From: a virus
Virus record (IMG/VR): IMGVR_UViG_3300042904_000405
Coordinates: 1 to 64,000 of that record
Length of the DNA: 64,000 nucleotides
Strand: one strand, 5' to 3'
This document shows, in pieces, positions 1-47,568 of this stretch (within the stretch, counting starts at the first letter, position 1; each line of letters opens with the position of its first letter). Under the pieces are notes generated by a model. It worked only from the letters and a program-made list of their open reading frames with translations, ran no database searches and was not told the origin of the DNA. The position numbers were made by a program, and so were the translations under genes.

Positions 1-646
1 GACCATGGCGACCGACCTGCAGAAGGTCTTCGACGACGCCGCCGTGGCGCTGTGGGACTCGGTCTCCAACCCGACGACGGCCCAGCAGCGGATGATCCGC
101 AATCAGTTCACGGGGTATGGCCTCGGCTTCCAGAGCTTGAACACTGGCGCGATCCTCGGCTCGCAGAACGCGGCTGGGTTCCTCGACATCGCCGAGCGCA
201 TCTCGGACTTCATCCGCACGCAGCTCGCCGCCGGCGACGACGTGCGCGCCGTCACCAGCCAGGCTCGCGGGTACGTCGATCAGCTCCGGGCAGTGTCCGC
301 CCAGTACGGCGCCAGCAGCGCCGAGGTGGAGCACCTCCTCGCCTCCCTCGGCCTCACCGACTCCGCCATGGCCCAGCTCGTCGCCGAGGTGGATGCGCTG
401 CGCGCCGAGGCGAGCCGCACCGTGCCGGCGAGCGACCCGGAGGCAGCCAAGGCCGCCGAGGAAGAGGCCAAGCGACGCGACGAGGAGGCGAAGAAGCGCG
501 AGGAGCAGACGCAGGCGCTCATGCTCGAGCTGCTCCGCATCGCCGTCGCGAAGCCCACCAGCGTTGAGGTGTCCATCCCGTACGGCGACCCGGAGGCCGT
601 CGCTCTCGCCACCATGAACCGAATCGCCGACAGCCTCAGCGTCTGA
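1..646 (+). CDS. Tape measure protein, C-terminal part (probably 5'-truncated by window edge)
   Basis: Ala-rich helical/coiled-coil sequence, frame open to the window edge, directly upstream of the distal tail gene. Confidence 0.7.
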   Translation, partial: TMATDLQKVFDDAAVALWDSVSNPTTAQQRMIRNQFTGYGLGFQSLNTGAILGSQNAAGFLDIAERISDFIRTQLAAGDDVRAVTSQARGYVDQLRAVSAQYGASSAEVEHLLASLGLTDSAMAQLVAEVDALRAEASRTVPASDPEAAKAAEEEAKRRDEEAKKREEQTQALMLELLRIAVAKPTSVEVSIPYGDPEAVALATMNRIADSLSV

Positions 647-664
647 CCATAGGATCGTGGCCCA

Positions 665-15908: not shown

Positions 15909-16673
15909 CTAGAGCTTCCAGTACCGCTGGTGCAGCCGCGCCGTCAGGTGCGGGGTCTGCGGGAAGCTCGCCGTCGGCAGGCCCGAGCGGATCGCCCTGA
16001 ACCACCGGATCATCGTGTCGCCGGGCGAGTAGGCATCGATGGCTACCCGGGTGAAGGCGCCGTTGGCCCGATCCCCGAACCACGCGTCGTAGCTGTACTC
16101 GCGGTCCGAGCACCCGGAGATGAGCGTCGCCGGCACCCTCGACGCCTTCGGCTGCACCCAGCCGCGCGACATCGTGACGAGCGGGTCGCTGCCGATCAGC
16201 TCAATCGGCGACATGAACCGGGCGCGGATCGGTGGCAGGGATCCACCGAACCCCAGCCCAGCGACCCGAGACACCGAGCCCGAGTGGCAGCTGTCCGACA
16301 GGAACGTGCGCCGCACGCCAGTGGCGGCCGAGTCGAACGCTGTCGCCAGCTCGTCGTCGGTGATGTACCGACGGGTGTAGTCGGACGGGCACAGCACCTC
16401 GTCGAACCCGTCGATCTCGTCGCCGTTCCGATCCGGGACGAACGACCCGTGCCCCGAGTAGGTGAACACGAACCGGTCACCCCAGCGCATCCCGTCCAGG
16501 CCGTCGCGCAGGGCGGTGAGGATCGCATCCCCGCTCGGCTCGATTGAGATCGTCGGCTCGTAGCCCAGCTCGGCGAACATGGCCGCCCAGTCGTAGGCGT
16601 CATTGACGCAGCCGGCCAGCTCGGCCGACGTCCCCGGATAGTTCAGCCCGACGTGCAGTGAGCGCTTCAGCAT
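15909..16673 (-). CDS. Caspase-family (peptidase C14, metacaspase-like) protease
   Basis: VGLNYPG...LAGCVNDA, FTYSGHGS (catalytic His), LSDSCHSGS (catalytic Cys), GAFT. Confidence 0.92.
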   Translation of the reverse strand: MLKRSLHVGLNYPGTSAELAGCVNDAYDWAAMFAELGYEPTISIEPSGDAILTALRDGLDGMRWGDRFVFTYSGHGSFVPDRNGDEIDGFDEVLCPSDYTRRYITDDELATAFDSAATGVRRTFLSDSCHSGSVSRVAGLGFGGSLPPIRARFMSPIELIGSDPLVTMSRGWVQPKASRVPATLISGCSDREYSYDAWFGDRANGAFTRVAIDAYSPGDTMIRWFRAIRSGLPTASFPQTPHLTARLHQRYWKL

Positions 16674-17523: not shown

Positions 17524-17736
17524 TCATACGCGCTGGTGAAGCAGCTCGTTCAACAGGTGATGCCCGTTGAACCCGTCGAGTAGACGGAGCACCTGCTCGT
17601 CCGTCAGGTTCTTCCAGCTGGAGACGTCGCGCCGCAGGAAGAACTCAGCGAAGTCCATCCGCTCCTCCCGCGTCATCTTCAGCCCCTGGGCTTGAGCCAT
17701 CAGCGCGATGAACTGCGGGGAACGAGTGTTCGCCAT
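17524..17736 (-). CDS. Hypothetical protein
   Basis: SD GAGGAG; REERMDFA..FLRRDVSSWKNLT.EQ pattern seen in actinophage small proteins. Confidence 0.7.
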   Translation of the reverse strand: MANTRSPQFIALMAQAQGLKMTREERMDFAEFFLRRDVSSWKNLTDEQVLRLLDGFNGHHLLNELLHQRV

Positions 17737-18909: not shown

Positions 18910-19341
18910 ATGCCGAGTGCGGTCGCCGACATCGAAGAGGTGGAGACCTTCTTCGACCTGGTGCGCAGCGGCGCCGCCGAGATGGTCGCCGCCTACTCGG
19001 TGGGCTGGACCCCGCTGAAGCTGCGCAAGCTGAAGAAGGACACCGACTTCCTCGACCTGCTCGCCGACGCGCAGGAGCACTTCCTCGACCAGGTGGAGAC
19101 CACCGTCGGACAGCGAGCCCTGGCTGGCAACCGCTGGGCCGTGGAGATGGTGCTCTACAACCGCCGCCCCGACCGCTGGCGCCCGCCGGCACACAAGATC
19201 GCCATCGAGCAGCACACCACCGTCAAGCACGAGGTGGTGCAGGCCACCGTCGAAGCAGCCAAGGAGCTGCTCCTGACCAGCGGCACCGTGGCGGCGCTGC
19301 AGCAGCGGCAGGCGATCGAAGCGCATGTCCGCGACGACTGA
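18910..19341 (+). CDS. terS: Terminase small subunit
   Basis: N-terminal HTH-like segment, helical core, LYNRRPDRWR; overlaps terL. Confidence 0.7.
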   Translation: MPSAVADIEEVETFFDLVRSGAAEMVAAYSVGWTPLKLRKLKKDTDFLDLLADAQEHFLDQVETTVGQRALAGNRWAVEMVLYNRRPDRWRPPAHKIAIEQHTTVKHEVVQATVEAAKELLLTSGTVAALQQRQAIEAHVRDD

Positions 19342-20848
19342 GTCGCTCGAGCACCTCGAGCGCATCGCCCTTCCCTCCAGCATCGGCCGGTCGCTAGCCC
19401 CTCGGCTGTGGGGAGCGGGCACCGAGTACCGCGTCGACCCGTGGCTTGCCATGGCCGAGCAGGCTGTCGTGCCAGCGTTCCTGGACAAGACCCAGGAGTC
19501 GTTCATCATGCTGAACGTCCCGCCCCAGGTCGGCAAGTCGACCTTCGGCGGCGAGCTGCTCCCGTTCTGGGTGCTCGGCATGTTCCCCGAGACGCGCATC
19601 ATCGTCATCACCTACTCGGACGACTTCAGCAAGGGCCGCGGCGCCACTGTCCGCAACATGATGGAAGCCTTCGGGCCTGAGCTGTTCGGCGTCGACGTCG
19701 ACCCCGACTTTCGCTCCGCCGGCGACTGGCGCATCAAGGGGCACCGCGGCGGGATGCTCTCGGTCGGCATCGGCTCGCAGATCACTGGCCGTTCCGGCGA
19801 CCTGATCATCATCGACGACGTCATCAAGAACGCCGAGGAGGCGGCGAGCCCGACCGCCAAGCGCAAGCACCTCGCAGAGTACGACGGCACGATCCGCACC
19901 CGCCTCCAGCCGGGCGGCATGATCCTCATCACCGCCACGCGCTGGGCCGAGGACGACCTGTCCGGCGAACTGCAGACCCGTCAGAAGGACCCCACGTACT
20001 TCGGTGATCGCTGGGAGGTGTACTCCTTCCCGGCCATCGCCGAGCCCGAGGACGAGGACGACGAGGAGTGGGTCGACCCCCTCGGCCGCGCCGAAGACGC
20101 CGAGCTGCAGTGCCGCTTCCCCGAGGGCCACTTCCACCGCGTCCGCCGCTCGATCGACGCCTTCACCTTCAGCTGCCTCTTTCAGCAGCGCCCATCCGTC
20201 CGCAAGGGGGGCATGTTCCCCAAGGCGAACTGGCGCTACTACGACCCCGACGACCGCCCGTACATGGATCAGTTCATGCGGGTGTGGGACCTCGCCGCCA
20301 CCGAGAACGGCGGCGACTACACCGTCGGGTCGAAGGTGGGCAAGACGCGCGACGGCGAGTGGTACGTGCTGGACGTCGTCCGCAAACGGCTCAACGCCAA
20401 CGACGTGCGCGAGCTGGTCTGGGCGACCGCGGTCGGCGACGGCTTCCTCACCAAGATCCGCTTGGAGGAATCACGGGACGGCGCCGGCAAGAGCGTCGTT
20501 GAGTTCTACAAGGCGGATCCGCGCTTCGCTGGGTACGACATCAAGGGCACACGCGCCGAAGGCCAGAAGGAGAGCCGGGCCACGCCCTACTCCGCACTCC
20601 AGAACGGCGGCCACTTCCACCTGCCCGACGGCGCTCCGTGGGTGAAGGACTTCGTCGACGAGCATCGACAGATGATGGGCGACGGGCGCAAGCCGCGGCA
20701 CGACGACCAGATCGACACGGTCGCCTACGCCGTGCTCGAGATGGCCGACTCCGGCCCTGTCACCATCCTCGACCCGCACGACTACACCGACCAGTTCACC
20801 GAGAAGGCCATGAACGACATCTGGCGCCGCATGGGCGTCATGCGGTGA
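19325..20848 (+). CDS. terL: Terminase large subunit
   Basis: Walker A PPQVGKST, ITGRSGDLIIIDD Walker B, TRWAEDDL, nuclease WDLA..GDYT and HDDQID. Confidence 0.95.
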   Translation: MSATTESLEHLERIALPSSIGRSLAPRLWGAGTEYRVDPWLAMAEQAVVPAFLDKTQESFIMLNVPPQVGKSTFGGELLPFWVLGMFPETRIIVITYSDDFSKGRGATVRNMMEAFGPELFGVDVDPDFRSAGDWRIKGHRGGMLSVGIGSQITGRSGDLIIIDDVIKNAEEAASPTAKRKHLAEYDGTIRTRLQPGGMILITATRWAEDDLSGELQTRQKDPTYFGDRWEVYSFPAIAEPEDEDDEEWVDPLGRAEDAELQCRFPEGHFHRVRRSIDAFTFSCLFQQRPSVRKGGMFPKANWRYYDPDDRPYMDQFMRVWDLAATENGGDYTVGSKVGKTRDGEWYVLDVVRKRLNANDVRELVWATAVGDGFLTKIRLEESRDGAGKSVVEFYKADPRFAGYDIKGTRAEGQKESRATPYSALQNGGHFHLPDGAPWVKDFVDEHRQMMGDGRKPRHDDQIDTVAYAVLEMADSGPVTILDPHDYTDQFTEKAMNDIWRRMGVMR

Positions 20849-21341
20849 CGAAGGCCTCGTGCTCGGCTGGCTGGAGGAGCCGGTCAGGATGATCGAACGT
20901 CACCACGCCAGACCAGACAGTGACCCGCACGCCCCCGACGGTCCGCCAGTGTGGCACCATCAGGTATGGCGCCCACTGCGTCGGGTAGGGAGAGATGGCC
21001 CCGTCAGGATCGGTGGGCCACGCCAGGAAGACGGCGTCGTCCTCGCCGGGTAGGGCAGAGTTTGCCCTGAAGGCAGGGTGAGCCTCGAGCCGGGCGAGCG
21101 CCCTGCTGATGCGGATGACCGCTCGATGCAGCGAGCCCGAGGCCCGGCCCTTCCGCTGTCCGTAGGCGTTGAAGGCCTGCGCGCTCAGGTCATCCAGCAG
21201 CAGACGCCAACCGATCGGCGGCATCGGCACGTCGATCATCACCCGGCCAACAGGCTCTCCCCTGTCCAGCCACGCCTTCGCCGCCGAGGTGGCGTGCGCA
21301 TAGCATGCCTTGAGCTGGGAGTCAGTGAGGCGAACGATCAT
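20838..21341 (-). CDS. Hypothetical protein (last gene of leftward arm)
   Basis: ATGA-coupled start MIVRLTDSQ. Confidence 0.6.
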   Translation of the reverse strand: MIVRLTDSQLKACYAHATSAAKAWLDRGEPVGRVMIDVPMPPIGWRLLLDDLSAQAFNAYGQRKGRASGSLHRAVIRISRALARLEAHPAFRANSALPGEDDAVFLAWPTDPDGAISPYPTQWAPYLMVPHWRTVGGVRVTVWSGVVTFDHPDRLLQPAEHEAFVTA

Positions 21342-21493
21342 GGGGAATCGGACGGCGGTTCGGTAGCGCAGCTCGGGTTGGGACACTGGCGCTGTTCGCC
21401 GTACGGCCAGTCCATCGTCTGATCGACCACGACCCAGCCGACACCTCCACACTCGGGGCAGTTGAACGGCGGTTCGGTAGGGCTACTCGTCAT
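21338..21493 (-). CDS. Small CxxC protein bounded by two EPP repeats
   Basis: MTSSPTEPPFNCPECGG...CPNPSCATEPPSDSP. Confidence 0.7.
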   Translation of the reverse strand: MTSSPTEPPFNCPECGGVGWVVVDQTMDWPYGEQRQCPNPSCATEPPSDSP

Positions 21494-21690
21494 CGCTGGC
21501 ACCTGCCTGTTTCGTTGCATCGGCGCTCGCCGCAACGTTCGTCGAGGAAGTCCGCCAGGGGGCAGCCGTGTTCGTGGCGGTCGCCGGGTCGCACATCGGC
21601 GGTGCATGTGGCGCATCGGTAGTGGCCGGTGAGTTTCCGCCACCAGCCCCACGCGCTATCGGACGGCGGTTCGATGCCCGGCTCAGGCAT
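21490..21690 (-). CDS. Small Cys/His protein with N-terminal EPP repeat
   Basis: MPEPGIEPPSDS...CATC...HEHGC. Confidence 0.7.
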   Translation of the reverse strand: MPEPGIEPPSDSAWGWWRKLTGHYRCATCTADVRPGDRHEHGCPLADFLDERCGERRCNETGRCQR

Positions 21691-21973
21691 CGCTCACCAT
21701 CCATTGCAGGTTCCAGACACGGTCTGTCGATGGGTCGTGATGGTCGCGAGAGCCGTCGTGGAAGTGGCGAGCGGGTAGATCGCAGGTGTAGTGCACCGCA
21801 CCTGACGTGATCCGCGCCGGGCAGACCGGCCACGTATTGCACGGACATCCCGGAGCGGGATCGAGCAGCGGGCCACCGCCGCATTCCGGGCAGGTGGACT
21901 CGGACTGGACGTGATGCGCCGCCATGTCCGGACATTGCCCGACCGGCACCCCGTGCGAGCAATCGATAGTCAT
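21683..21973 (-). CDS. Cys/His-rich small protein
   Basis: MTIDCSHG..CPECGG..CPC..C..C..H..H; SD GGAAGAGG. Confidence 0.6.
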   Translation of the reverse strand: MTIDCSHGVPVGQCPDMAAHHVQSESTCPECGGGPLLDPAPGCPCNTWPVCPARITSGAVHYTCDLPARHFHDGSRDHHDPSTDRVWNLQWMVSDA

Positions 21974-22212
21974 TCCCCGCCCTCTTCCTCGTCGGTCCCC
22001 GATCCGTTGCAGGCGGCGCAGACGCTGACAGTGAGACCCATGCGATCCCAGCAGCGGCCGAGCCCGAGGCAGTCCTGACACGGCACGGTGGCGGAGTTGA
22101 ACGGCGGTTCGGTAGCCCGTTCCCGCATCGCCTTGCGCTTGCACTCACACCCGCCCTGGAACAGGCAGTCAGGGTGGCGCTCGCACCTATTGAACGGCGG
22201 TTCGGTAGCCAT
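21970..22212 (-). CDS. Two-module Cys-rich protein with two EPP repeats
   Basis: MATEPPFNRC...ATEPPFNSATVPCQDCLGLG...CAACNGSG (DnaJ-type CxxCxGxG). Confidence 0.7.
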   Translation of the reverse strand: MATEPPFNRCERHPDCLFQGGCECKRKAMRERATEPPFNSATVPCQDCLGLGRCWDRMGLTVSVCAACNGSGTDEEEGGE

Positions 22213-22346
22213 CACAGGAGCGCCAGTCCGACCATTGTCCACCACAGTGCGAGCATGATGAAGCCCGCCAGGCAGACGGCTACGAGTAATCCGAGCGCGG
22301 CTTCGTCGTCGCTATCGGACGGCGGTTCGGCAGAGGGGTCAGGCAT
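22212..22346 (-). CDS. Small membrane protein with N-terminal EPP repeat (44 aa, not in ORF track)
   Basis: MPDPSAEPPSDSDDEAALGLLVAVCLAGFIMLALWWTMVGLALL; TGATG coupling both sides. Confidence 0.65.
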   Translation of the reverse strand: MPDPSAEPPSDSDDEAALGLLVAVCLAGFIMLALWWTMVGLALL

Positions 22347-22633
22347 CACAGACCATCCAGCCTCATGCGAGGGTCGAGCCGGCGCGGGGGCTGATTCCGC
22401 TTGAGGTAGCCGTGGAGTCGCTCGTCGAATGCCTCGTCCTCCTCAACCATGTTGAAGATGGCATCGCAGAGCTGCCATGCCTCCTCTCGGTTCTGCTCGG
22501 CGAGCTGCTCAAGGCTGAGCCCGCGCTCGCCCAGAGCCTGGAGAACGAGGGCGATCTCTGGGTCGCTGGCCCGTTCGTTGACCCAAGCGATCATCTCGCC
22601 GAGCGCGTTGCGCTCCTCGTCGATCTCGCTCAC
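22346..22633 (-). CDS. Hypothetical protein
   Basis: Coupled ORF with strong codon bias. Confidence 0.65.
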   Translation of the reverse strand: MSEIDEERNALGEMIAWVNERASDPEIALVLQALGERGLSLEQLAEQNREEAWQLCDAIFNMVEEDEAFDERLHGYLKRNQPPRRLDPRMRLDGL

Positions 22634-22878
22634 ATCGTCTCCGTCCGCGGCGTGATCACAGCCTCTCCGACACGGATCGTCCTCGACTTCTCCCGGGCGC
22701 CGGTCAGCAGACCCAGGCGGATCATCTGCTGGAGCATCGCTTGGATCGAGCCGGGGCTCTTCATGCCGATGCCCTCGGCGATCTCGCGCACCGACGGCGA
22801 GTAGCCGTGCGCGTCGATGAACGACTGCACGAACCGTTGGATCTCCGCGGCCTGCCGCGGGACGTAGTTGTCCTTCAT
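22630..22878 (-). CDS. Stand-alone LexA N-terminal winged-helix DNA-binding domain (no Ala-Gly site or S24 protease domain)
   Basis: RQAAEIQRFVQSFIDAHGYSPSVREIAEGIGMKSPGSIQAML...GLL....KSRTIRV matches the LexA DBD pattern. Confidence 0.85.
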   Translation of the reverse strand: MKDNYVPRQAAEIQRFVQSFIDAHGYSPSVREIAEGIGMKSPGSIQAMLQQMIRLGLLTGAREKSRTIRVGEAVITPRTETM

Positions 22879-25800
22879 TGGTTCAGCTCTCCTTGGATGT
22901 TGGGATTGAGTTGATCACGGCGCTTCCGGTAGAAGCGTCCTTCCACCGTCACGCGGCCGGCCGAGCCGACGCCCATGGTCGGACTGTCGGTCACCCCGGC
23001 CCATTCCCAGCGCACCGTGCCCGCTTCCACCTGGAAGGCGTGCTGCGAGCCGTCAGGCATGGCGACGAGCACGATGACCTCGGTGGCGTCCGTGAACTCC
23101 TGGCCGATGCTCATGTCTCGCGCTGCTCCATGCGCTCCAGCGCCTTGTGCGTCGACCAGCCGATGTGGCCACAGGAGCACCGATACTCGCGCGAGAGATC
23201 GGATACGCGGCCCGAGCTGCGCCGGCGCGACGGGTTCACCTTCGTCCTCCCGGTCAGCGTGACGCTGTGTTGGTTGCGCTCTCGCCTTGTCCGCTCGACG
23301 TCGGTGTACCAGATCTTCCTGGCCTGCGAACAGTGGAACCAGATCGGGTTGCCAGTCCCCGCTGAGCGGCTCACAGCACCGACTCGTATCGTGCGTGCCG
23401 CGTCTCGACGACGTGGCGGTCCTCGGCGGCGATCGTGGTGAAGATCTCGCCGCACGTGCAGCAGCGGGTGTCCGAGCACTCAGCCGCCGGGGCGTGCCTC
23501 CCCGTCGTCTTCTTGCGCTTCGTCGCCTTCACGTCGATGCCCAGCTTGCGCGCCTGGTCGGGGGTGAGGTGGACACTCATGCCGGCTCCTGCATCCCCAG
23601 GTTCTGGGCTTCGGCAGCCCACCAGAACACGTCCTCGGTGGGCTCGATCTCGGCGAGGAGATCAAATGCCGCCTTGCACCCACCCCAGTGGATGACGCCG
23701 CTCAGGTACCGCACGCGGGCGATCATCCGCTGTCCAGCCGCATCGGCGACGCCGGCGAACCTGCCCTCCGGGTCGCGGAGGCGCTGGGCGAACAGCAACA
23801 CGGCCTGCTGCAACGTGAGGTCGAACGCGCGGTCCGTGCAGTGGTATCCGCCGAACGGGTCGACGATCCCACTTATGAAGTTGAACGGCCCCTCGGGCTT
23901 GATCTCCCAGTCGTTCACGCGTCGTCCTCCGGTGCGCTCAGGTCGGTCACCACGATCTCGGTGCCCGTACGTTCCCACTTGGCGATCATCTTGTAGTCGA
24001 CGTAGCCCAGCTCCTTCAGCAACTCCGCCTTCGGCTTCGTCGCTGGCGCCACGAAGGCCTCGTGCATCAGCCGGATCGCCTCGGCGACGGCCTCCTCGGT
24101 CGATCGCTGCTCTCCGGTGGCCTTGTCGAGCCCGATCGCCCGCACCCTGATGGCACTCTCCAATTCGTCATGACGGAATCGCCACTTGCCGGTGGGCTTC
24201 ACGGCGTACAGGTTGGTGCCGAGCTGACGGGCCGAGCCCTCGAGCTGAGCCTTGGCCGTCGTCGTCAGCATCGACTCGGCGCGCCGGGTCTCCGACTGCA
24301 GCGTCGTCAACGCCTCCCTCATGGCGAGCGCCTCGTCTACATCCATCTCGTCGCACTGGTTCAACAGCTCGGACACGACGTCGATCGCCGCCAGGATGTC
24401 GCCCATTGAGACGGTCATGGCCGCTCGTTCCAGTAGCGGTAGCGCTGGAGCACTTCGAGCGGTGGATGGGCGTCGGCGTAGACAGTGCCGTCGAAGATCT
24501 CCTCGGCCTCCTGCGGCGAGCGGCATCCCTCAACCGCATTGATGATCTCGTCGGTCTTCTTGCTGCGCATGTAGTACGTGGCCATCACCACACCTTCGAC
24601 TTCATGCCCTGGACCTCAGCCCTCGACGGCGAGTACGGGCGCTCCACCCGACGGCCCTCCTTCTTCGCCTCGGTCGCCTTGTCCCGGCGCTTCTGCTGGA
24701 TCTCGCGGGCGAGCCAGCCGGCGTCGCGGAGGCCCGCTGCGTCGTACGTCCACTTGAACCTCTTGATCTTCATCAGTCCAACTCTCCTACTGAAACGTTG
24801 ATGCGGGGTGGGGCCGGCTCGTAGCACCACAGGAACGGCCCGCCGGCGGCCGAGTAGCCGGAGTTGTCGTAGCCCGACAGGCAGCGGAACGTGCGCTCCG
24901 TCTCGGGATCGGTGATCGTGATCCAGCCCCCGCCGACGGTCGCCCTGACCCCGACCTGTGGTCCGGGGGGTTCGTCGACCGGTGGCGATTCGTCGACGTA
25001 GTAGGCGCCACCATCGTCGCCGCCGCATGCGGCGAGCAGCGCCACCGGTAGCAGCAGGGGCCGCTTCACTGCTGCGCCTCCAGCATCCGCCGCCTGCGCT
25101 CGGCGAGGTACCTCTCCACCTCGATCACAGACCGATGGATCGGCCCGGTCGACGGCGCTGTGAACTCCGGGATGCGGATGTAGCGCTCGCCGTCCCACTC
25201 CAGCCGCTCGCCGACCGGCTCTGGCCGCTGCGTCTCGGTCTTCGCCCAGTGCGCACGCAGCCGGGCCGCGTCCTCCTCCCGTGCCCGCATCAGCTCGGTC
25301 TGGCTGAAGCCGCCGTCCTCTTGGATGTTGCGTTGCTCAATGCCCATCAGTCGAACCAGTCGTCCTTTGCGTGTCGTGCGATGTACATGGCCTTCTCCCA
25401 ATCGTCGTCGTGGATGTCGTCCATCCCCGCCCATCCGTGCTTCGTCAGCAGCGTCTTCGCCTTCAGCTCGTCCTCGGGGGAGAGCTGCTCCAGCAAGCCT
25501 CGCAGCACGACCGGCTTGTTCGGATTCGGCGCCGGCGCCTCAGCACGGGTCGGGGTCCGTGCTGGGCGCTCGGCGCCTGACCCGCGTGAGCGCTGGGGGG
25601 GCGCCTCTGCGCGGGCGGTCTTGGATGGCAGTCGTTCGAAGCCCGCCATGATCCTGACCTTCATCTTGGCCGACACGTCGTCGACCGCCTTGAAGATGAG
25701 CATGCGATCACCTGGCTGCATCCCGATGAGCCGGGTCGCCATCGCTGCGCCCGCTGGCTCGTCGGTGCGGTGGGTGCGCACGGTCTCGACCTCGCCACCG

Positions 25801-27656: not shown

Positions 27657-28250
27657 CTAGGGCACTTCGATCACGAGGAGCACCGAGTGGTAGCCCCAGA
27701 TGTTGAGCTGCTTCTTGCCCGAAGGCTGCGACCGCATGGCGTGGATGTACAGCTTTCCAGCCACCCGGCCACCGGCCTTGCGCACCGCCTCCGTCACGAA
27801 GCCCGACTGATCGCGGAACTTCGACGCCACGTTTGAGTCCTGGCACTTCACCAGGACCAGCCGGCGCGAGATCTCCATCGCCTCGAGCGCTCCGCCGATC
27901 AACGTCTCGTCGACCGAGTCAGCGCTGCTGTAGTCGCCCAAGCCGTACTGCGCGTCCGACTCCAGCCGGCTCGTCCCTCGGTAGGCATAGGGCGGGTCCC
28001 AGCACACGACGCTGTACGCACCCGGCGCGAACGCCCGATCGAACACGTTGTGGTGGTAGTCCGCCGCCACTGCCTCGTCGTCGTCGTTCGTGACGAGCAC
28101 GTCAGGGCGCCAGCGCGTCCAGAACCCTGCGTTCGGCCCGACCGTCAAGTCAAGGATGGAGTCCTCCTTGCGGAGGATCCCCAGCTCGGCGAGGTCGGCG
28201 ATGGCGGCACCGTTCGTCACGCGGTGCGTGTCGTTGGCCAGGATGGTCAT
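27657..28250 (-). CDS. Putative DNA amino-(N6A/N4C) methyltransferase
   Basis: ILDLTVG...GFW SAM-binding segment and WDPPY catalytic motif; LVKCQD. Confidence 0.75.
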   Translation of the reverse strand: MTILANDTHRVTNGAAIADLAELGILRKEDSILDLTVGPNAGFWTRWRPDVLVTNDDDEAVAADYHHNVFDRAFAPGAYSVVCWDPPYAYRGTSRLESDAQYGLGDYSSADSVDETLIGGALEAMEISRRLVLVKCQDSNVASKFRDQSGFVTEAVRKAGGRVAGKLYIHAMRSQPSGKKQLNIWGYHSVLLVIEVP

Positions 28251-28537
28251 GTCGTTCCTCTCGTCGCCCAGATGGACGTCGTCTCGCCCAGTGTCACGCC
28301 GTCGTGAGCTGCCAGCTCCTGATCGACGTACGCCCGCAGGTCGACGGCGATGTCGCCGTCGCCCCACGAGACGCGGGCGATCAGCGCGGCGCTGTCACCC
28401 GGCGCCCGCACCACGATGTCGATGCCCGAGTACTCGCTCACGCTGACGTCGTCGTCCGCATCCAGCTCGCACACGATGCGGCTGCGCGCCTCCTGCTCGC
28501 CTTCGATCTCCTCAATGGCGTCGTCGAGTGCACTCAT
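28247..28537 (-). CDS. Hypothetical acidic protein
   Basis: SD GAAGGAG, ATGA coupling. Confidence 0.65.
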   Translation of the reverse strand: MSALDDAIEEIEGEQEARSRIVCELDADDDVSVSEYSGIDIVVRAPGDSAALIARVSWGDGDIAVDLRAYVDQELAAHDGVTLGETTSIWATRGTT

Positions 28538-29250
28538 GCGGCTCCTTCCAGGTACGCCAACAGCTGGCGTCCGATGTGTTCGGTGTAGCGCGGTGGGATC
28601 GACTCGCACAGCTCGTCGTTGGTCATCCAGTCGATGCCCATCGCCTGCTGACGGATCGGCCCCTCGCCGGCGTACTGCAGGTGCCCATGCACCCCGACGA
28701 CCGAGGCGAGCCGCCCCTCCTTGCGGTTCTTGCTCGCCAGCGACTGGAACCGCGGCGTCTGCCAGCCGTGGTCGCACGGCGGCGCTGTCAGCGGCCAGTT
28801 CGTCTCGAAGTACCGGTGGCGGCGGATGTCCATGCCGAAGCTGGATCCGCACAACCGCACCGGGTCGACCATGTGTCGGCGAGCGCCCTCAACGTTCTCG
28901 ATGACGTAGGGCAGCCCGCTCGCCTGCAGGGCCTCACGCGTCGCAGCCAGCAGCCACGCCGTCCCCTTCGCGCCCCGCGCCTTGCGGTCGGTGCCGGTCG
29001 ACGTTGAGAAGTCATGACACGGCGGGGACGCATGGATGGCGCTGTAGAACGCCCGCCCCCACATTCCGACGGCGTCGGCCTGGATGTAGCTGTCGAGGTA
29101 CTCCAGAGCGTCGGCCTGGACGAACCCGCAGCCGGGCGGGTAGTTCGGCTGCGGCGCTACATCCACGCCGACGACCGAGAAGCCCGCCTTGTGGTAGCCC
29201 GCCGACGCCCCGCCTGCTCCGCAGAACAGATCGAGGATGACCGGCCTCAC
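28534..29250 (-). CDS. DNA cytosine-C5 methyltransferase
   Basis: LDLFCGAGG, IHASPPC, YVIENV, RRHRYFE motifs. Confidence 0.9.
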   Translation of the reverse strand: MRPVILDLFCGAGGASAGYHKAGFSVVGVDVAPQPNYPPGCGFVQADALEYLDSYIQADAVGMWGRAFYSAIHASPPCHDFSTSTGTDRKARGAKGTAWLLAATREALQASGLPYVIENVEGARRHMVDPVRLCGSSFGMDIRRHRYFETNWPLTAPPCDHGWQTPRFQSLASKNRKEGRLASVVGVHGHLQYAGEGPIRQQAMGIDWMTNDELCESIPPRYTEHIGRQLLAYLEGAA

Positions 29251-31684
29251 ACGGCCTCCACGCACTGTGGCTTCAGGTACATCGGGTTGCCGAAGCGTGG
29301 CTGCGGGATGTCCAGCTTGACGGCCACCCTGTCGCCCTTGGCCGAGTACACCGTCACGCCGGTGGCGCCGTCGAGCACCTTCGGCCGGATGTTCGTCAGC
29401 CGCACCCGCGTGCCCACCGGCAGCGACGCGTTCCTGGCGTTCAGCGCCCGGGTGACCAGATCCTTCAGCTCGCCGAGCTGCTTGGCGTCGGCCTCGCGGC
29501 TGATGAACTGGTCGACCTCTTCGTACGTCATGATTCCCCTTTCAGGTTGTGCTGGGTCGCCCAGCAGTTGGTGCGGGGCTTGTTGACCTCGCCCTCGCAG
29601 ATGCATTGGTCGATGGGGATCGTCTCCACCTTCGGCTCCTCATCAGGCAGCCCTTTGACGCAGGGGAAGACCTTGAACGTGTCGAGGTAGTTCTCCCACT
29701 TGCCGTAGTGAGGGTCGCCCTCGTTGTCGGCGATGATGTCGGACCACGTCGTCTCAACGAGCTGCCGCAGGCTGGCGTACTCCTCGTCGAGCGACTCGGG
29801 GTTGCCCCGGTACGGCCGCCGGCGCAGATCGGCACAGCCGGCGCGATGGACGTGCCACTCGCCGCCCATTCCGATGTTCGGCCCGGTGACGTTGAGGATC
29901 ATGCGTCGTGTCCTTCCTCTCTCAGGCAGTTGCCCTGTTGGTCGATCTCGTAGCCGCACTCCCCGCAGCCGTAGGCCTCGCCGCATCGACCGCACGTCGG
30001 CGACACCGTGTCGCCCTGCATGATCAGCTCCAGGTCGCTCTCGGTCCACGGCTCGTGCTTGGTCCAGAACTGGCATCCGTTGCACCAGAACGTGCGCAGC
30101 ACCTGCGTGCCGTCCTGGAACACCTGGAGGTCGAACATCGCCTCCAGCCGTCGTGCTCGCTCGGGCATCAGCACTCCCTCATCAGCTCTCGGAGGCGCGC
30201 GTCGCCGGCCGAGGAGAGCTGCTTGCCGTAGCCCTCCTCGTACTTCTCCACGCCGAACTGTTCGATCGCGGGGGTCAGGCCGCCGAGCTTGGCGATCTCG
30301 TCGCAGACCTGACCGCGGAACTGCGGCCAGACCATGTCGAGGGCGAGGACGTCTTCGTCCGCGGCTGCGACCGTGGTCGGCGGCAGCGTCCGGTAGACGA
30401 TCTGCGGCTCACTCTTCTGGCAGGCGACCAGGCCCAGCAGCGCGATCGGGATGATGAGCAGTCGCTTCATGATCTGTCAGCCTCCAGCTTGTGTTCGACC
30501 CACTCGGTGTAGCCGAGCACGGTGTCACCGTTGGCGACCTCGTACTGCCAGTCGGCGAGCGTGTAGTCGTCGTGTTCCGTCATCTGTTCCTCCACAGGTG
30601 GTCGATGTCTCGCATGTGCTCCTCGTACTCCTGCTCCTCGGTGTAGGGCTCGATGTCGGGGATCGTGTACTCGGCGCGGCCTCGGACGTGCAGCTCCTCG
30701 GTGCCAGCGCAGAACGCCGAGTGCGTCCCGATCGACACCCAGTCGTACTCGTTGGTCAGGTCGTTCCACCGCACGTCGAGGTGGTGCTTGCACGTCAGGC
30801 AGATGATCGGGTGGTGCGCCACGGTTCCTCCTCAGCAGCTGGCGTAGCCCATGAACGCCCACTGGCCGTCGCCGGCCGGGACGCACACGGCGCTGCCCCA
30901 CTTGTCGTCGAACACCTCGGCCATCTGGCGGAAGTTCGGGATCTGACGCAGCTGCGTGATCGCCTTCTTCGCATCGATCTCCCACTGGAGGGGCGGCGTG
31001 ATCTTCGGCTTCTTCCACTTCAGCGCCCTCGTGATGACGGCGTTGTTCGTGTCGTACTGCGGGCGCCGCGGTTCGAACGGCTCCGCTGGCGGCGTGTCGT
31101 CGACCGGCACCCGGCAGGTCACCGTCTCGGTCACCTTCATCGTGACCGTGCGGGTGTAGGTCGCCGTCTTGTGCAGCGGCTCCGGTGGGCGATCATCCAG
31201 CACCTCGTAGCTCGATGCGCTGAGGGCGTTGAACAGCTCCTCGGCTGTCATGCCTTTCGGCAGCTGGTAGCACACGAAGCCCGCCTTCTCGGCGATCGTC
31301 CCCGTGTAGCCACCGTGGCCGAACTCGTGCGCCGCCTCCCGGTAGGCGTTGTCGAACGCCTCCGAGGCGGTCTTGCCCTTGCCGATGCTGAAGAACGTTG
31401 TTGCTCCCATGTCATCCTCCTGTTGTGACAGCTGACAGCTCGATCACCCAGTAGCCCCAGGGGAAGCGCTGCTCCTCCGCCCACCCGTCGGCCACCTCGG
31501 GATCGTCGAACGGACCGATGTGGTTGAAGCCATCGACCGGCGTGCCGGTGATGACGATGTGCTGGGCAGCGCCCGGGGCGCGCGTCAGTTGGATCACCTC
31601 GTCGTTCAGACGGATGACGGCCTGTCGCCAGGTCTCGTCGTCGCCCGTGTTGGGGATCGGCGTGTCGCCGCAGTCGTGGTCCAT
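29247..31684 (-). other. Run of small early genes (29247-29531, 29528-29902, 29899-30168, 30168-30470, 30467-30583, 30580-30822, 30832-31410, 31412-31684)
   Basis: Coupled ORFs with GGAGG SD sequences. Confidence 0.65.
30168..30470 (-). CDS. Lipoprotein
   Basis: MKRLLIIPIALLGLVAC lipobox. Confidence 0.75.
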   Translation of the reverse strand: MKRLLIIPIALLGLVACQKSEPQIVYRTLPPTTVAAADEDVLALDMVWPQFRGQVCDEIAKLGGLTPAIEQFGVEKYEEGYGKQLSSAGDARLRELMREC

Positions 31685-32571
31685 CACGTTCCTCCTGTTG
31701 TCACTACGAACCCGCTCTTGCCGATGAGCTGGCGGGCCCGACCCTTTGCGCTCAGGTCTCCGATGACGCCCTCCTGGAACATCCACTCGTCGGTGAGGTC
31801 GGCGTCGACGACGTTGGCCCAGTAGACGTTGCCGCCGAGCCAGATCGGCTCCGGCTTCTGTCCCTTGCGACGAGACGTGACGACAGCGACTGAACCGCCG
31901 CGCTCCACGAAGTCGAAGACGGCGTGCTGATCGCTGTTCTCGTTCCAGCTGTACGCCAGGCGGTAGGTCGCGCCGACCCAGCCGTCGGTGTCGAGGACGA
32001 ACGGGTCCTTCGTGTACCCGTAGCTGAGCACCCGCGTCCCGAGCGTGTCGCCGTTGGTGAGCGACGGCAGGATCAGATCCCACCGGACGTCGCTATTGAC
32101 GTTGGGCCGGAACAGGATGTTCGTCTTCCAGTGCCGGGTCCAGGCGGCTTCCAGCTCCCAGCCCAGCAGGAAGGCGAACGCCCGCGGCTGCTCGCAGAGG
32201 AAGTCCACCTTCGCCCGGCGCGCCTCCTTGACCGCTTCGAAGGAGCCGTTCCCGTTGTCGAGGACGCACACCTTCTGACAGTCGCCGGCATGCGGGCAGG
32301 CGTTGACGATCAGGCCACGCTTGACCCGTGTCGTCGTGTGCTGAAGCGTGAGCCCGTAGCTCGGCACCTTGCCCTTCAGCAGCTTGTCGTTGTCGGCCGG
32401 CCAGGTGAGCAGTCGCAGGGCGGGACCGGTGAAGCCTCGCTTCTCCCGGTACGCCTGGTACAGCTTCATCGCCAGGCCTCGTTCGTGCCTGCTGGCATGC
32501 GAGGCTCCCCGGACGAAGTACTCGTCCATGGCCGCCGCGTGCGGCAGCAGGTGGTCAGTCAGCGTCTTCAT
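31684..32571 (-). CDS. GP88-like phage protein (Cys-cluster, radical-SAM-like)
   Basis: NACPHAGDCQKVC...ARRAK...FRPNVNSD...YGYTK pattern. Confidence 0.7.
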   Translation of the reverse strand: MKTLTDHLLPHAAAMDEYFVRGASHASRHERGLAMKLYQAYREKRGFTGPALRLLTWPADNDKLLKGKVPSYGLTLQHTTTRVKRGLIVNACPHAGDCQKVCVLDNGNGSFEAVKEARRAKVDFLCEQPRAFAFLLGWELEAAWTRHWKTNILFRPNVNSDVRWDLILPSLTNGDTLGTRVLSYGYTKDPFVLDTDGWVGATYRLAYSWNENSDQHAVFDFVERGGSVAVVTSRRKGQKPEPIWLGGNVYWANVVDADLTDEWMFQEGVIGDLSAKGRARQLIGKSGFVVTTGGT

Positions 32572-38370: not shown

Positions 38371-38534
38371 CGAACCCCTGTTCGGGAACGTCTGTTCGAC
38401 GAACCCCTGTTCGGGTACACGCGTTCGGGTACGGGTGTTCGACGATCGAGTGTTCGGTCGCCGGGCAAACCCATGTTCGTACGATCGAGTGTTCGATCGC
38501 CGGGGGATCAAGCGTTCGTACGATCGTTCGTTCG
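38371..38534. promoter_or_regulatory. Tandem array of ten LexA (Gram-positive SOS/Cheo) box-like sites
   Basis: 14-mers at 38371, 38385, 38400, 38414, 38428, 38443, 38466, 38482, 38505, 38521; two perfect CGAAC-N4-GTTCG, all with invariant GTTCG. Confidence 0.8.
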
Positions 38535-44586: not shown

Positions 44587-44760
44587 TCAAGACAACAGAT
44601 CCTTCAGCTTCGTGATCTCGTCGTAGGCCTTCTTGACCTTGCCGCCGTGACGTTCGACGAGCTGGTTCCAGTCGACGAAGACGGACAGCGGCGAGGCCGA
44701 GATCTCGCCGATCTCGGTCAGCCCTTCGAACTGGGTGTTGATGTCGTCTTCGTTGCTCAC
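44587..44760 (-). CDS. Small hypothetical protein
   Basis: GTGA coupling; MSNEDDINTQFEG... Confidence 0.55.
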   Translation of the reverse strand: MSNEDDINTQFEGLTEIGEISASPLSVFVDWNQLVERHGGKVKKAYDEITKLKDLLS

Positions 44761-45371: not shown

Positions 45372-45465
45372 TCGGCGATCGTATACGACGCCGCCTAGCA
45401 TGTCCAGCGAACGAGCGTTCGCCGGCGGTGGACAAAGCTGCTATGCCACCTCTACGGTGGCTGCT

Positions 45466-46004: not shown

Positions 46005-46555
46005 CTAGCAGCCAGCGCCCTTCTTCCAGAACGCGGCCTTCACCGTCGGGTAGGTGCCGTTGAGGCTCATCTCGTAGGACTGCTCCATGTAGCACGTCCG
46101 CCTGACGGCATCCCGGGGGTGGCAGTACGGCACGCCGCCGATCGACGCCTCTTGCTCGGGCATCACCCGGCCGCAGCGCCCACAGATGCGCTCAACCACC
46201 GTTCACCCGCTCACGGATCATCTCGACGACGCGGGGCTCGCTGAACAGCCAGACGAACACCTCGGCCCACTGCTGCTTCGGGAACGTGGCCCGCAGCTGC
46301 TCGAGCTTCAGGTGAAGGTCCGGGTCGGCGCGGAAGGTGACGACGGGGCGCTCAGCCATCTTCGTCCCAGTCGTATGGCTTCCAGTTGTCCGCTGACTCC
46401 GGCCGCCACTCGATCTCTTCGCGCCGCCACTCCTTGTACAGCATGTCGCCGGACCGCATGCGGGTGACCGCCTCACGGCCATCGCTGGTCTCACACCACA
46501 GCGAGCCGTCGGGGGCGAGCACCCGGAACCAGCGTCCGCGTTTCCAGTCAGGCAC
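46005..46555 (-). other. Three small genes (46005-46199, 46192-46359 RHH-like, 46352-46555)
   Basis: Coupled ORFs. Confidence 0.55.
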
Positions 46556-47568
46556 CGGTCACCACCTTCCATGTTCCGTCCGGGCTGACCCGCACGATGG
46601 TGTAGCTCTGAGCGAACAGCGATGTGCGCGCCGTCTCGGGGTCGTTCGCTCCCCACCACAAGCGGCCGTCGCGATCAACCACGTAGAACATGTCGGCGAC
46701 CTGTTTCGGCGGTTCGGTAGCGGGGTCAGGCATTGGCGATCGCCGCCCTCAGAGCGTGGACGAGTGACGAACCCTCGCCCGTGCTCACTACGCCGCGCTT
46801 GTCCCCAATCACCACCGCGGTTCCGTGAGTCGTGATGGCGTGCGGTATCCGCACCGTCGCTCCGCTGCCGAGCACGACGTCGAGTAGATCGTCAGTTGTG
46901 AGCAGGTCGGCACAGTCTGGACAGAGCGCGAACCTCAGAGGGATGAGGTCCGAGCAGCGGCAGGGGCTATCGGACGGCGGTTCGTTAGCTGGTGCTGGCA
47001 TAGCCGTCCATCCATCGCTCGGCGATTCGGTAGCAAGGGTCCAGACAGAAGTGCCAGACCTGTACGTCATCGGCGCACCATCCCATGTCGGCCAATGGTC
47101 GGCGCGTGCCGCAGATGGCGCAGATGAACGGCGGTTCGATGGCAGGCGCAGGCGGCGGACTGCTCGGCCACGGCGGGCACTTGCTCACGTCGGTCCGCGG
47201 GTTGCTAGCCATCGGCCGATTCTTCGCACGGGCGACAGATGCCGTCAATCAGTTGCTCCCGCGACTCGCAACGCTCACAGACACCGCTGCGGCCCTCGCG
47301 GAAGTAGCGACGAGTGTTTGGTGGGAGGTGGGCGAGGGGGTCGCTATTGAACGGCGGTTCGTTAGTCACGGTCGGCCTCCAGCCATCGCCCGATGGCTGG
47401 GAGTCCGACTCGGACGACGGGCTCATCGGTGTCGAGCACGGCTCGCGCCTCGTCGCTGATGGACGGCGGTTCAGACGCCTGATCGCACGGCCACGGTTCG
47501 CCGCACGTCGCACATCGGACGATGGTCGCCGGGCGATGGCGATTGAACGGCGGTTCATCAGCGGGCAC
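46548..47568 (-). other. Five small EPP-motif genes (46548-46733, 46726-47001, 46985-47211, 47205-47369, 47362-47568), four with CxxC
   Basis: MPDPATEPPK, MPAPANEPPSDS, ..AIEPPFIC, MTNEPPFNS, MPADEPPFN..ASEPPSIS. Confidence 0.7.
46703..47557. repeat. EPP-repeat cluster 2: six sites at 46703 (degenerate), 46971, 47125, 47348, 47460, 47544
   Basis: Same CGGCGGTTC core, orientation and reading frame as cluster 1. Confidence 0.92.

Follow-up and report, generated by a model that had tools for sequence, protein, structure and literature searches.

A short translated repeat that may act as an in-frame joint between micro-gene cassettes in a soil phage

The sequence analysed here, a window of 64,000 nt, is part of a 72.4-kb virus record with 67% GC that represents a soil phage. 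On the minus strand, which is the coding strand here, a row of tiny genes is punctuated by six copies of one short repeat, CGAACCGCCGTYCR, situated between 21349 and 22329 (array 1, Table 1). The repeat is translated as Glu-Pro-Pro, which raises the question of what is being kept in it: a peptide, a protein-binding site, or a DNA joint at which small genes and protein modules are exchanged. Cultured phages offered little to compare with. Neither blastn of 20800-23200 nor tblastn of g5 against INPHARED gave anything useful, and no cultured phage has a terminase more than 35% identical to the one encoded here. A host among the Actinobacteria is suggested by the GC content and by the kind of SOS box (see below).

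Copies, leaders and spelling of the repeat

A search of the plus strand for YGRACGGCGGTTCG with at most one mismatch returned 11 matches in the window against 0.33 expected, a number reached by none of 100 shuffles. The array 1 matches are spaced by 114, 197, 438, 93 and 125 nt; the original prediction had reported six copies 93-438 bp apart, and this is reproduced here. With the 9-nt core GAACCGCCG, we obtained 13 matches versus 1.55 expected, 12 of them on the minus strand and a single unrelated one on the plus strand at 31892. The 12 minus-strand copies all have the same orientation, being direct repeats, and share 9-21 nt of exact identity with one another. Half of them form a second set at 46707-47557 (array 2), whereas the earlier inventory covered array 1 only. 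It had also placed the copies at gene starts, at a gene end and at a joint between two modules, and this is indeed where they are found: 6-15 nt past the start codons of g1, g2, g4 and g5, at the end of g5, and inside g2. The genes of array 1 are all encoded on the minus strand, each overlapping its neighbour by 1-8 nt.

Table 1. Coordinates of the repeat copies, the micro-genes and their neighbours in the window
Feature	Position	Strand	Description
Motif copy 1	22316..22329	-	15 nt after g1 ATG (MPDPSAEPPSDS); right breakpoint of the 967-nt natural deletion
Motif copy 2	22191..22204	-	6 nt after g2 ATG (MATEPPFN)
Motif copy 3	22098..22111	-	inside g2; in-frame joint of Cys module 1 and Cys module 2; in-frame ATG 15 nt upstream
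Motif copy 4	21660..21673	-	15 nt after g4 ATG (MPEPGIEPPSDS); g3 stop codon within the leader (ATGCCTGA)
Motif copy 5	21463..21476	-	15 nt after g5 ATG (MTSSPTEPPFNC)
Motif copy 6	21349..21362	-	C-terminus of g5 (ATEPPSDSP, stop), 16 nt before g6 ATG; left breakpoint of the natural deletion
g1	22212..22346	-	micro-protein of 44 aa that has a single hydrophobic helix; unmatched in Pfam and PHROG
g2	21970..22212	-	80 aa, two Cys-rich modules fused; in relatives each module is separate or has other partners
g3	21683..21973	-	96-aa Cys/His-rich protein without the motif
g4	21490..21690	-	66-aa Cys-rich micro-protein
g5	21338..21493	-	51-aa CxxC...CxxxxC micro-protein; DnaJ CXXCXGXG and Anti-TRAP matches weak, sub-threshold only
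g6	20838..21341	-	conserved 167-aa protein downstream of array 1; 16 metagenome homologs, no known family; flank kept in the array-less variant
Acidic 95-aa protein	22346..22633	-	upstream of array 1; other flank kept in the array-less variant
82-aa protein, LexA DNA-binding domain only	22630..22878	-	same operon, 284 nt upstream of g1
Array 2	46548..47568	-	five coupled micro-genes, six motif cores
Array 2 micro-genes	47362-47568, 47205-47369, 46985-47212, 46726-47001, 46548-46733	-	
Array 2 motif core starts	47556, 47472, 47360, 47137, 46983, 46715	-	

The repeat belongs to a larger unit, composed of an SD-like GGATGG, an ATG or GTG, one to five codons that usually contain an out-of-frame TGA or TAA for the upstream gene, and C-GAA-CCG-CCG-TYC-RAT. 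A stop in the +2 frame was present inside the leader in 32 of 39 cases, compared with 10 of 116 other genes, and it is because of this stop that the upstream gene ends just before the joint. Every copy lies downstream of both the start of the next gene and the stop of the previous one, always in the same frame. The possibility that each micro-gene has its own promoter was rejected: no promoter-like site was found in 20700-23500, where the only terminator-like site is on the other strand at 23255, and no TANNNT at leaderless spacing could be seen by eye.

All 12 copies in the window read GAA CCG CCG in the same frame. For comparison, the shares in 101 other genes are 15.4% for GAA (Glu), 54% for CCG (Pro), 14.6% for GAT (Asp) and 5.5% for AAT (Asn), each among the codons for the same amino acid. 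A general N-terminal codon bias was considered as the source of GAA, GAT and AAT and discarded, A and T being only slightly enriched at the third position of codons 2-11 (GC3 of 0.87 versus 0.89 in gene bodies; GAA at 22% there). The same codon-locked motif occurs in eight other IMG/VR records (G001-G008), 3-18 nt past the starts of tiny coupled genes. With a stricter pattern, 43 copies were counted in ten arrays, and 39 of them have an in-frame ATG or GTG at most 18 nt upstream. One-mismatch scans of ten arrays from nine records revealed no GAG and a single synonymous Pro variant (CCA), while non-synonymous variants (GGA, GAT, CTG) do occur. The claim that selection acts on the DNA spelling is thus supported.

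Searches for further loci were less productive. No related locus was confirmed among viral contigs (with the terminase, g6, a g6 alignment and P0024 as queries) or among metagenome contigs (g6 and its alignment). In a scan for prophage examples, a two-copy pattern whose window covered part of the observed spacings retrieved 47 loci from genome contigs, none of this kind; they were rejected as unrelated tandem repeats, namely Pro-rich proteins, tRNA-like or CRISPR-like arrays and masked duplicates.

Rearrangements between copies of the repeat

The most direct evidence for exchange at the repeat comes from a contig of the groundwater run X5 (contig record 20; 619 nt, depth 5.3), which is about 98% identical to the window, with 6 differences over 459 nt and 7 over 160 nt. 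In this contig, position 21364 is joined straight to 22332 with no letters between, so that 967 nt are skipped, which is exactly the distance between the outermost copies, 6 and 1 (22316 minus 21349). These two copies share 17 exact nt, less than the 31-letter words of the Logan run index; the Logan contigs, too, are built with k=31. The crossover interval falls at the edge of the shared 17-mer and not in the core: the T of copy 6 at 21364 is followed by two letters that fit either side. This natural deletion is a single junction in one assembled contig, as opposed to raw reads, and fits a loss as well as a gain. The interior of the array is almost without contig cover in X5, although a hole in cover proves nothing. 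A second joint, 21240 to 22191 in run X3, has a side of 28 nt and further sequence in between, and is too weak to build on.

Related proteins, in which module swaps were read at the protein level, point in the same direction. Past the E-P-P joint, module 1 of g2 (CERHPDCLFQGGCECKR) continues into unrelated sequence in each of P0023, P0024, P0028 and the window, which makes four different modules; in P0025, two other modules delimited by EPP come before it. Module 2 of g2 is a separate gene in P0026 and P0027. Similarly, the protein body encoded at 46548-46733 in array 2 is found both with and without an EPP leader.

At the level of whole phages, G002 and G007, two related phages of about 16 kb, are some 70% identical over most of their length and carry different cassettes between conserved flanking genes. 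Among otherwise unrelated records, two of the three hits between G001 and G002 and the sole hit between G001 and G003 are stretches of 31-37 nt centred on the start and the motif. Leaders without a body were also seen: the mini-ORFs MPEPGMEPPFNSRGGA and MTNEPPSISEAR, each closed by a stop, precede genes in G002, and another, MPDPSTEPPSDSP, likewise ending in a stop, is predicted in the X5 variant. The products expected from crossover between copies, that is, a precise deletion, partner swaps, a module both fused and free, and leader-only mini-ORFs, are all seen in relatives. Module content that varies with breakpoints at the repeat had been postulated in the original prediction, and the 967-nt joint, the g2 swaps and the cassettes of G002 and G007 bear this out; neither of the outcomes named there as contrary, an invariant gene order in which synonymous sites drift or breakpoints lying off the repeat, was observed.

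Joint, operator or peptide

Given a single frame and a position past both start and stop, crossing over between any pair of copies takes out, brings in, replaces or fuses gene bodies without loss of frame or coupling. In our judgement, it is somewhat more likely than not that the repeat is a portable, frame-locked joint between micro-gene cassettes. Crossover would then proceed by template switching or short-homology recombination, using the 9-21 nt over which copies are identical, with no dedicated integrase, and the spelling would be fixed since exchange needs identity. The spelling would probably be kept as well by a predicted LexA-type protein binding the dyad CGAAC-CGCC-GNNCRA. Such a binder could be host LexA or the 82-aa LexA-domain protein that the phage encodes just upstream of array 1, and its binding would put the arrays in touch with the SOS response. 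Use of host LexA by a phage is known from the tectivirus GIL01, which has a LexA-like gp6. Glu-Pro-Pro would mainly be the fixed translation of a DNA joint. One point against this reading is that short-homology exchange selects only weakly for nine or more invariant nt across unrelated phages.

The original prediction had described inverted arms around GGCG, which are present, but overlooked that, by its letters, the motif is a near-consensus actinobacterial LexA (SOS) box and hence a candidate operator. Its sequence fits both the M. tuberculosis SOS box, TCGAAC-N4-GTTCGA (PMC3381160), and the Streptomyces venezuelae motif from LexA ChIP, given as tCGAAC-N4-GNNCGa with a weaker right half (PMC9380542), which it resembles in having an invariant left half and a right half of the form G-N-Y-C-R-A. 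At one mismatch or less, CGAAC-N4-GTTCG has 22 sites in the window versus 3.5 expected, and nine of the 12 motif copies match at this level (the exceptions being 46715, 47472 and 47556). Exact GAAC-N4-GTTC is found in six window copies, and perfect SOS-box 14-mers in two copies of G003 and one of G007. Dyad-like conservation extends to an A at -3 and a T at +14. Furthermore, the phage carries about ten SOS-type boxes at 38371-38534, a perfect box in an intergenic gap at 45408, and the 82-aa protein itself, which matches PF01726 (E 3.4e-12; 46.4 bits against a cut-off of 23.7) and the solved LexA 8s7g (E 1.1e-6), and comprises just the DNA-binding domain of LexA, lacking the part for cleavage.

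Could the copies, then, be primarily binding sites for host LexA and/or the 82-aa protein, acting as stoperator-like roadblocks or as a LexA sink, with recombination merely incidental? LexA sites internal to coding sequences are on record for M. tuberculosis, yet the same source lists 13 intragenic motif matches there that LexA does not bind (PMC3381160). An operator requires no fixed frame, strand or spacer, whereas all three are fixed here: every copy is intragenic, with strand and frame shared by all, no promoter-like site lies nearby, and the 4-nt spacer is CGCC in 49 of 57 rows, although real SOS boxes vary there. Such a constant spacer does not fit a plain LexA operator. The right half is also less faithful than an operator would lead one to expect, since GNNCGA fits only about 18 of about 45 copies, and in about 25 of them, more than half, an A replaces the consensus G (GTTCAA, GTTCAT, GTCCAT). 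Finally, no LexA domain was found in nine other motif-bearing records, most of which have hardly any other SOS-like box. We consider it unlikely, though worth keeping in mind, that operator function came first.

The second alternative places selection on the peptide. An N-terminal x-E-P-P-[FS]-[NDI]-[SC] might be functional as an EF-P-dependent Pro-Pro pause that spaces ribosomes at coupled starts, as a tag or docking motif, or as a structural cap for the Cys modules. Without exception the motif is in frame, it is, as mentioned above, near a start in 39 of 43 copies, leader-only mini-ORFs stand before some genes, and position +5 is Ser or Cys drawn from different codon families (AGC, TCC, TGC), an observation that counts against the joint reading in that peptide selection could be at work. 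However, the peptide alone leaves unexplained the absence of GAG, the single CCA, the use of GAT always over GAC, and AAT at about 11 of 15 Asn codons versus 5.5% in the genome. Changes that alter the residue (E to G, E to D, P to L) turn up as often as silent ones, and the bodies that follow are unrelated, comprising a membrane helix, Cys modules and acidic tails. The known arrest-peptide motif is R-A-P-P (or R-G-P-P) at the arrest point; here, P-P is preceded by E, in rare cases by G, D or Q, and the position ahead of this residue is taken by T, N, D, I or A but in no case by R. It thus seems to us quite improbable that the peptide is what the repeat is kept for.

A third possibility is that an unrecognised recombinase cuts an asymmetric core and moves cassettes, as happens in integrons and shufflons. 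The inverted arms around an asymmetric 4-nt core and the precision of the copy-to-copy deletion would suit it, as would the HNH nuclease gene that lies beside the arrays in this phage (G000; 48060-48452) and the HNH-like motifs seen by eye in ORFs adjoining the arrays of G002, G005 and G007. But G000 has no match to PF00589 (tyrosine recombinase) or PF00239 (resolvase), G002 and G003 alone of five records tested match PF00589, and PHROG and Pfam scans of 23 further phage proteins, a selection of the ORFs, detected no recombinase. Moreover, the arms measure only 5 nt, with a degenerate right arm, and the X5 crossover interval, as described, avoids the core. Nor is there a stable hairpin: 38-nt RNA folds around the 12 copies are no more stable than shuffles, no common hairpin emerges, and the TCC variant is unpaired. 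An RNA element was likewise dismissed (Rfam at gathering thresholds gave 0 matches over the whole window), and so were tRNA relics, of which ARAGORN found none. The likening of the array to an integron, and of the motif to a site-specific recombination site, is not supported on these grounds (no integrase or resolvase, direct repeats, no stable fold), and we find a dedicated recombinase very hard to credit.

Simple paralogy, according to which the micro-genes are tandem duplicates of one ancestral gene with the motif as their best-kept piece, is already disfavoured and barely plausible: several cassettes are Cys-rich, and leaders of the types MxxEPP and MP[DE]PxxEPP turn up repeatedly, in the same array and in different ones, but the bodies show no detectable similarity, conservation at the nucleotide level includes silent sites across unrelated 15-kb and 72-kb phages, and breakpoints and partner swaps lie at the motif.

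Relatives of the repeat and its meaning

Among known systems, a close parallel is provided by the PeSLs (promoter-early stem-loops) of T4-type phages, short conserved repeats that flank small non-essential ORFs in hypervariable regions; as described in PMC2839356, recombination between PeSL copies explains insertions, deletions and replacements among close relatives. In both cases small ORFs are flanked by repeats and indels end in them (here, 21364 to 22332), and in both each repeat brings an expression signal with it. The PeSL differs in being an intergenic unit of a sigma-70-like early promoter and a terminator stem-loop, whereas the present repeat is coding, frame-locked and able to fuse protein modules, and shows neither a promoter-like site nor a stable stem-loop.

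Repeats of actinobacteriophages (Cluster K SAS, the Cluster O 17-bp, Cluster M CR3 and Cluster EG 18-bp repeats) are similar in belonging to high-GC phages and in being short and concentrated near starts in a small-gene arm, and the Cluster O repeat TGTTCGGNNNCCGAACA holds the same GTTCG and CGAAC pentamers. Gene insertions accompanied by CR3 copies are described for Cluster M phages in PMC7953290, and PMC4351075 mentions a 17-bp direct repeat on both sides of Corndog gene 14 that is single-copy in relatives. The start-associated sequence of Cluster K lies immediately upstream of the start and overlaps the ribosome-binding site (it is mentioned in PMC4351075). Those repeats are intergenic or upstream of starts and have no frame lock, while ours begins 3-18 nt downstream, is translated and is found at breakpoints.

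With integron arrays, the present arrays have in common a row of promoter-less small genes, bounded by repeats, whose content varies between relatives; they differ in having no integrase, no attC-like folded site, and a joint that is in frame and translated. An attC site is a long imperfect palindrome that folds as single-stranded DNA and measures 57-141 nt, as compared to 14-21 nt of identity here, with no RNA fold above shuffles. Shufflons use inverted repeats and an Rci-type recombinase to produce inversions, whereas our 12 copies have one orientation and no PF00589 accompanies them. Unlike in integrons, exchange is most likely driven by homology. Limited word searches of the literature on PeSLs, start-associated sequences and phage LexA/SOS boxes found no in-frame, translated SOS-box-like repeat at phage gene starts, which does not prove that none has been described.

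The joint and the operator might also coincide. The motif would then serve at once as a functional LexA operator and as the place where an in-frame cassette system crosses over, giving an SOS-gated gene-shuffling array without an integrase, a scenario that we regard as distinctly doubtful. If it were true, DNA damage would switch on the arrays, and activated RecA together with forks stalled at protein-bound repeats would raise shuffling between co-infecting phages; the leader, with a start in one frame and stops in the others, would be an evolved universal adaptor that keeps new neighbours coupled. More generally, if the overlap with an SOS operator is functional, exchange or its expression would be linked to DNA damage.

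Although phage genomes are mosaic, one can seldom see which sequences serve for the exchange of small accessory genes. In this case the joint can be read directly, as a short sequence that is translated. A single repeat preserves frame, start, upstream stop and coupling, whatever is joined, and acts between genes as well as between protein modules, which also points to a natural design by which cassettes might be exchanged in frame. The tiny ORFan micro-genes that it connects are probably host-takeover or anti-defence factors, and the repeat offers a testable rule for how such genes spread among unrelated soil phages.

A translated repeat in two micro-gene arrays

The window covers bases 1-64000 of an IMG/VR virus record, which is linear, 72,403 bp long and estimated at 95% completeness, with 65-69% GC along its whole length and no tRNA genes. 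It has no close cultured relative in INPHARED, where no phage terminase exceeds 35% identity to its own, and blastn with the array 1 region returned no match. Array 1, the micro-genes g1-g5, lies at the distal end of a long operon that runs leftward and converges on the terminase gene, and all motif-bearing genes lie on the minus strand.

Pattern scans bore out the six motif copies that the original prediction had placed in array 1, at the spacings it gave, and located six more in array 2 (46707-47557). The predicted pattern matched the window 11 times at ≤1 mismatch against 0.33 expected, while the 9-nt core GAACCGCCG occurred in 12 copies on the minus strand and one unrelated copy on the plus strand, against 1.55 expected. 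The coding-strand form is C-GAA-CCG-CCG-TYC-R, and the constant Glu-Pro-Pro reading claimed earlier holds for 12 of 12 copies. In array 1, copies lie 6 or 15 nt past the start codons of g1, g2, g4 and g5; one is internal to g2, another closes g5, 16 nt ahead of the g6 start, and neighbouring genes overlap by 1-8 nt. Pfam and PHROG searches with the micro-proteins found no explaining family.

Features of the window and of related virus records
Record	Position	Strand	Feature
Window	15909-16673		ORF on the strand opposite to its neighbours'; start MLKRSLHVGLNYPG...
Window	17719-17732		One-mismatch SOS-type box; divergent starts near 17730
Window	19325-20848	+	Terminase gene
Window	20838-21341		g6, 167 aa; family without a name, 16 metagenome homologs, invariant core MPPIGW...EAHPA; no Pfam or PHROG match
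Window	21338-22346	-	Array 1 (g1-g5)
Window	22346-22633		95-aa acidic gene upstream of array 1
Window	28534-29250 and 27657-28250		Leftward operon: C5-type DNA methyltransferase (phrog_363, E 3e-29) and second, weak methyltransferase match
Window	31684-32571		Protein of 295 aa; Pfam GP88 (PF17338, E 2.6e-18), phage family without known function
Window	38371-38534		Tandem row of about ten CGAAC-N4-GTTCG-like boxes, intergenic, spacers varied; (T)GTTCG kept in each on + strand; gap separating the divergent early operons; G-runs and palindrome CCCCCCTAGGGGGG border the row
Window	45408-45421		Perfect SOS-type box CGAACGAGCGTTCG; 95-nt gap separating the divergent genes 44757-45371 and 45466-45627
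Window	46548-47568	-	Array 2
Window	48060-49150 region		HNH endonuclease (PHROG, E 1.4e-10) and replication-initiation or primosomal protein (E 2.6e-21), both divergent from the operon that begins with array 2
G002 (L277)	645-690		Leader-only mini-ORF MTNEPPSISEAR*
G002 (L277)	1511-1561		Leader-only mini-ORF MPEPGMEPPFNSRGGA*
G002 (L277)	3098-3538		Tyrosine integrase
G002, G005, G007 (L277, L278, L279)	First 2 kb		Micro-gene array beside an ORF judged by eye to have HNH-like motifs; virus records of 15-16 kb, 70-72% GC, rated 99-100% complete

Spelling and leaders across phages

IMG/VR was scanned with exact patterns, and most returns were single chance hits; eight records (G001-G008), however, carry one-strand clusters of 2-7 copies, and the motif is not confined to the phage of the window. 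Four of the eight, about 15-25 kb long and rated 99-100% complete, hold the array inside their first 3 kb, adjoining ORFs with HNH-like motifs (called by eye). A stricter pattern gave 43 copies in ten arrays, with an in-frame ATG or GTG ≤18 nt upstream in 39 of them. Two types of leader, the codons between start and motif, recur in several phages: M-x-x-EPP and M-P-[DE]-P-x-x-EPP.

In scans at ≤1 mismatch, GAG never replaced GAA and CCA appeared once, while non-synonymous variants were present (GGA, GAT and CTG, and ATC, ACC or CCC replacing TTC or TCC). After the motif, Asp is always GAT and Asn mostly AAT. Ordinary codon usage does not account for this fixed spelling, since GAA, GAT and AAT are rare genome-wide (15% of Glu, 15% of Asp and 5.5% of Asn across 101 further phage genes, with CCG at 54% of Pro) and these shares are hardly shifted in the first ten codons of other genes. 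Between the otherwise unrelated G001 and G002, two of three nucleotide hits are stretches of 31-37 nt centred on start plus motif, and the sole hit between G001 and G003, also otherwise unrelated, is of the same kind. Because synonymous changes are nearly absent and start-plus-motif stretches are common to unrelated records, nucleotide-level selection or homogenisation acts on the spelling across phages, in agreement with the selection on DNA proposed earlier.

Most leaders have a further property, absent from the original prediction. A +2-frame stop lies between start and motif in 32 of 39 leaders, compared with 10 of 116 other genes, in the forms xxT GAC, xxT AAC or CCT GAS; +1 overlaps of ATGA or TGATG type are as frequent in leaders as elsewhere. 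Within the window, it is at these stops that the upstream genes g3, 47362-47568, 46985-47212 and 46726-47001 really end, and each motif copy therefore sits just downstream of both the stop of the preceding gene and the start of the following one. A crossover within the motif would thus always leave the upstream gene complete, the start kept and the body in frame. An upstream gene entering in the motif's own frame would instead produce a fusion, g2 being an example.

Breakpoints at the repeat

Fourteen public runs contained part of the array 1 stretch, and contigs of four were aligned to the window. A 619-nt contig from X5, a groundwater metagenome of a study other than the window's probable source, joins 22332-22491 (7 differences) directly to 20906-21364 (6 differences), with zero letters between. 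It omits 967 nt, exactly the distance between copies 1 and 6 (22316 and 21349), which have 17 nt of exact identity in common. Logan's run index uses 31-letter words, longer than this identity, and the Logan contigs that gave the junction were presumably built with k=31 as well; in that case, a misjoin caused by the repeat is unlikely, because 17 nt is shorter than k. The variant retains the upstream 95-aa gene and g6, and between these flanks only a 13-codon ORF is predicted, in which the g1 leader runs through the motif into the g5 tail. Interior pieces of the array are present in runs X4 and X6; therefore, array and array-less forms both exist in nature.

With g2 as query, protein searches recovered its first module, CERHPDCLFQGGC[ED]CKR..., from six further proteins. 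Three of these, P0023, P0024 and P0028, continue from it through an E-P-P-[FS] joint into three mutually unrelated tails, none like that of the window; P0025 carries two further Cys modules ahead of it, each delimited by EPPF or QPPF; and in P0029 and P0031 it has no adjacent joint. The second module is a free-standing 54-aa protein in P0026 (with its own start, M-N-T-E-P-V-F) and in P0027, and among the proteins found the two modules are joined in the window only. Likewise, the body of 46548-46733 has an EPP leader in the window but none in P0019-P0021. G002 and G007, which share about 70% identity along most of their sequence, differ in the sets of motif-led cassettes between two conserved flanking genes. 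Overall, the deletion (a single junction, from an assembled contig), the module swaps (at the protein level) and the cassette differences allow us to conclude that breakpoints fall at the repeat and that module content varies with them, as originally predicted.

Two leader-only mini-ORFs of 11-16 codons stand ahead of ordinary genes in G002, one of them preceding a methyltransferase-like gene, and another, MPDPSTEPPSDSP*, is predicted in the X5 variant. Such mini-ORFs resemble cassette sites left empty, or leaders for coupling.

LexA, recombination and known systems

The motif is a candidate binding site for a LexA-type protein. It is one base off CGAAC-N4-GTTCG, which has 22 sites in the window at ≤1 mismatch against 3.5 expected, the boxes at 38371-38534 and 45408-45421 among them, and an 82-aa protein encoded 284 nt upstream of g1 corresponds to a LexA DNA-binding domain alone (solved LexA 8s7g, E 1.1e-6). 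The consensus of M. tuberculosis is TCGAAC-N4-GTTCGA (PMC3381160), and that of S. venezuelae is the imperfect tCGAAC-N4-GNNCGa (PMC9380542); the latter form mirrors the motif, whose left half does not vary while its right half is loose. Perfect SOS-box 14-mers occur in G003 and G007. Against a plain operator, however, the spacer of the motif is constant, its strand and frame are fixed, A replaces the conserved right-half G in about 25 of about 45 copies, and there is no promoter-like site near the array 1 copies. Moreover, the LexA domain was found in none of nine other motif-bearing records, most of which have hardly any other SOS-like boxes. The boxes at 45408-45421 and 17719-17732 look like ordinary operators, while the coding copies do not. 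Binding of the motif by a LexA-type protein is thus a candidate second layer on the joint, plausible but unproven, rather than an explanation of frame-locking.

The suggestion of a dedicated site-specific recombination site is not supported: the phage has no match to PF00589 or PF00239 (PF00589 matched in only two of five records tested), a scan of 23 further proteins gave nothing recombinase-like, every copy is a direct repeat, the arms measure 5 nt with a degenerate right one, and the motif has no stable fold. We therefore infer homology-driven exchange or template switching, which would run across the 9-21 nt of identity between copies. Repeat-mediated exchange of the same sort has been proposed for the PeSLs of T4-type phages (PMC2839356).

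Actinobacteriophages commonly carry short repeats close to gene starts (Cluster K SAS, Cluster O, Cluster M CR3, Cluster EG), of which CR3 accompanies gene insertions (PMC7953290), and the shuffling of small ORFs by repeats is established for T4-type PeSLs (PMC2839356). The present motif also coincides with a host-type SOS box. Unlike PeSLs and actinobacteriophage start repeats, it is translated and frame-locked, its unit carries the stop for the neighbouring gene, and the joint works at two levels, that of genes and that of protein modules.
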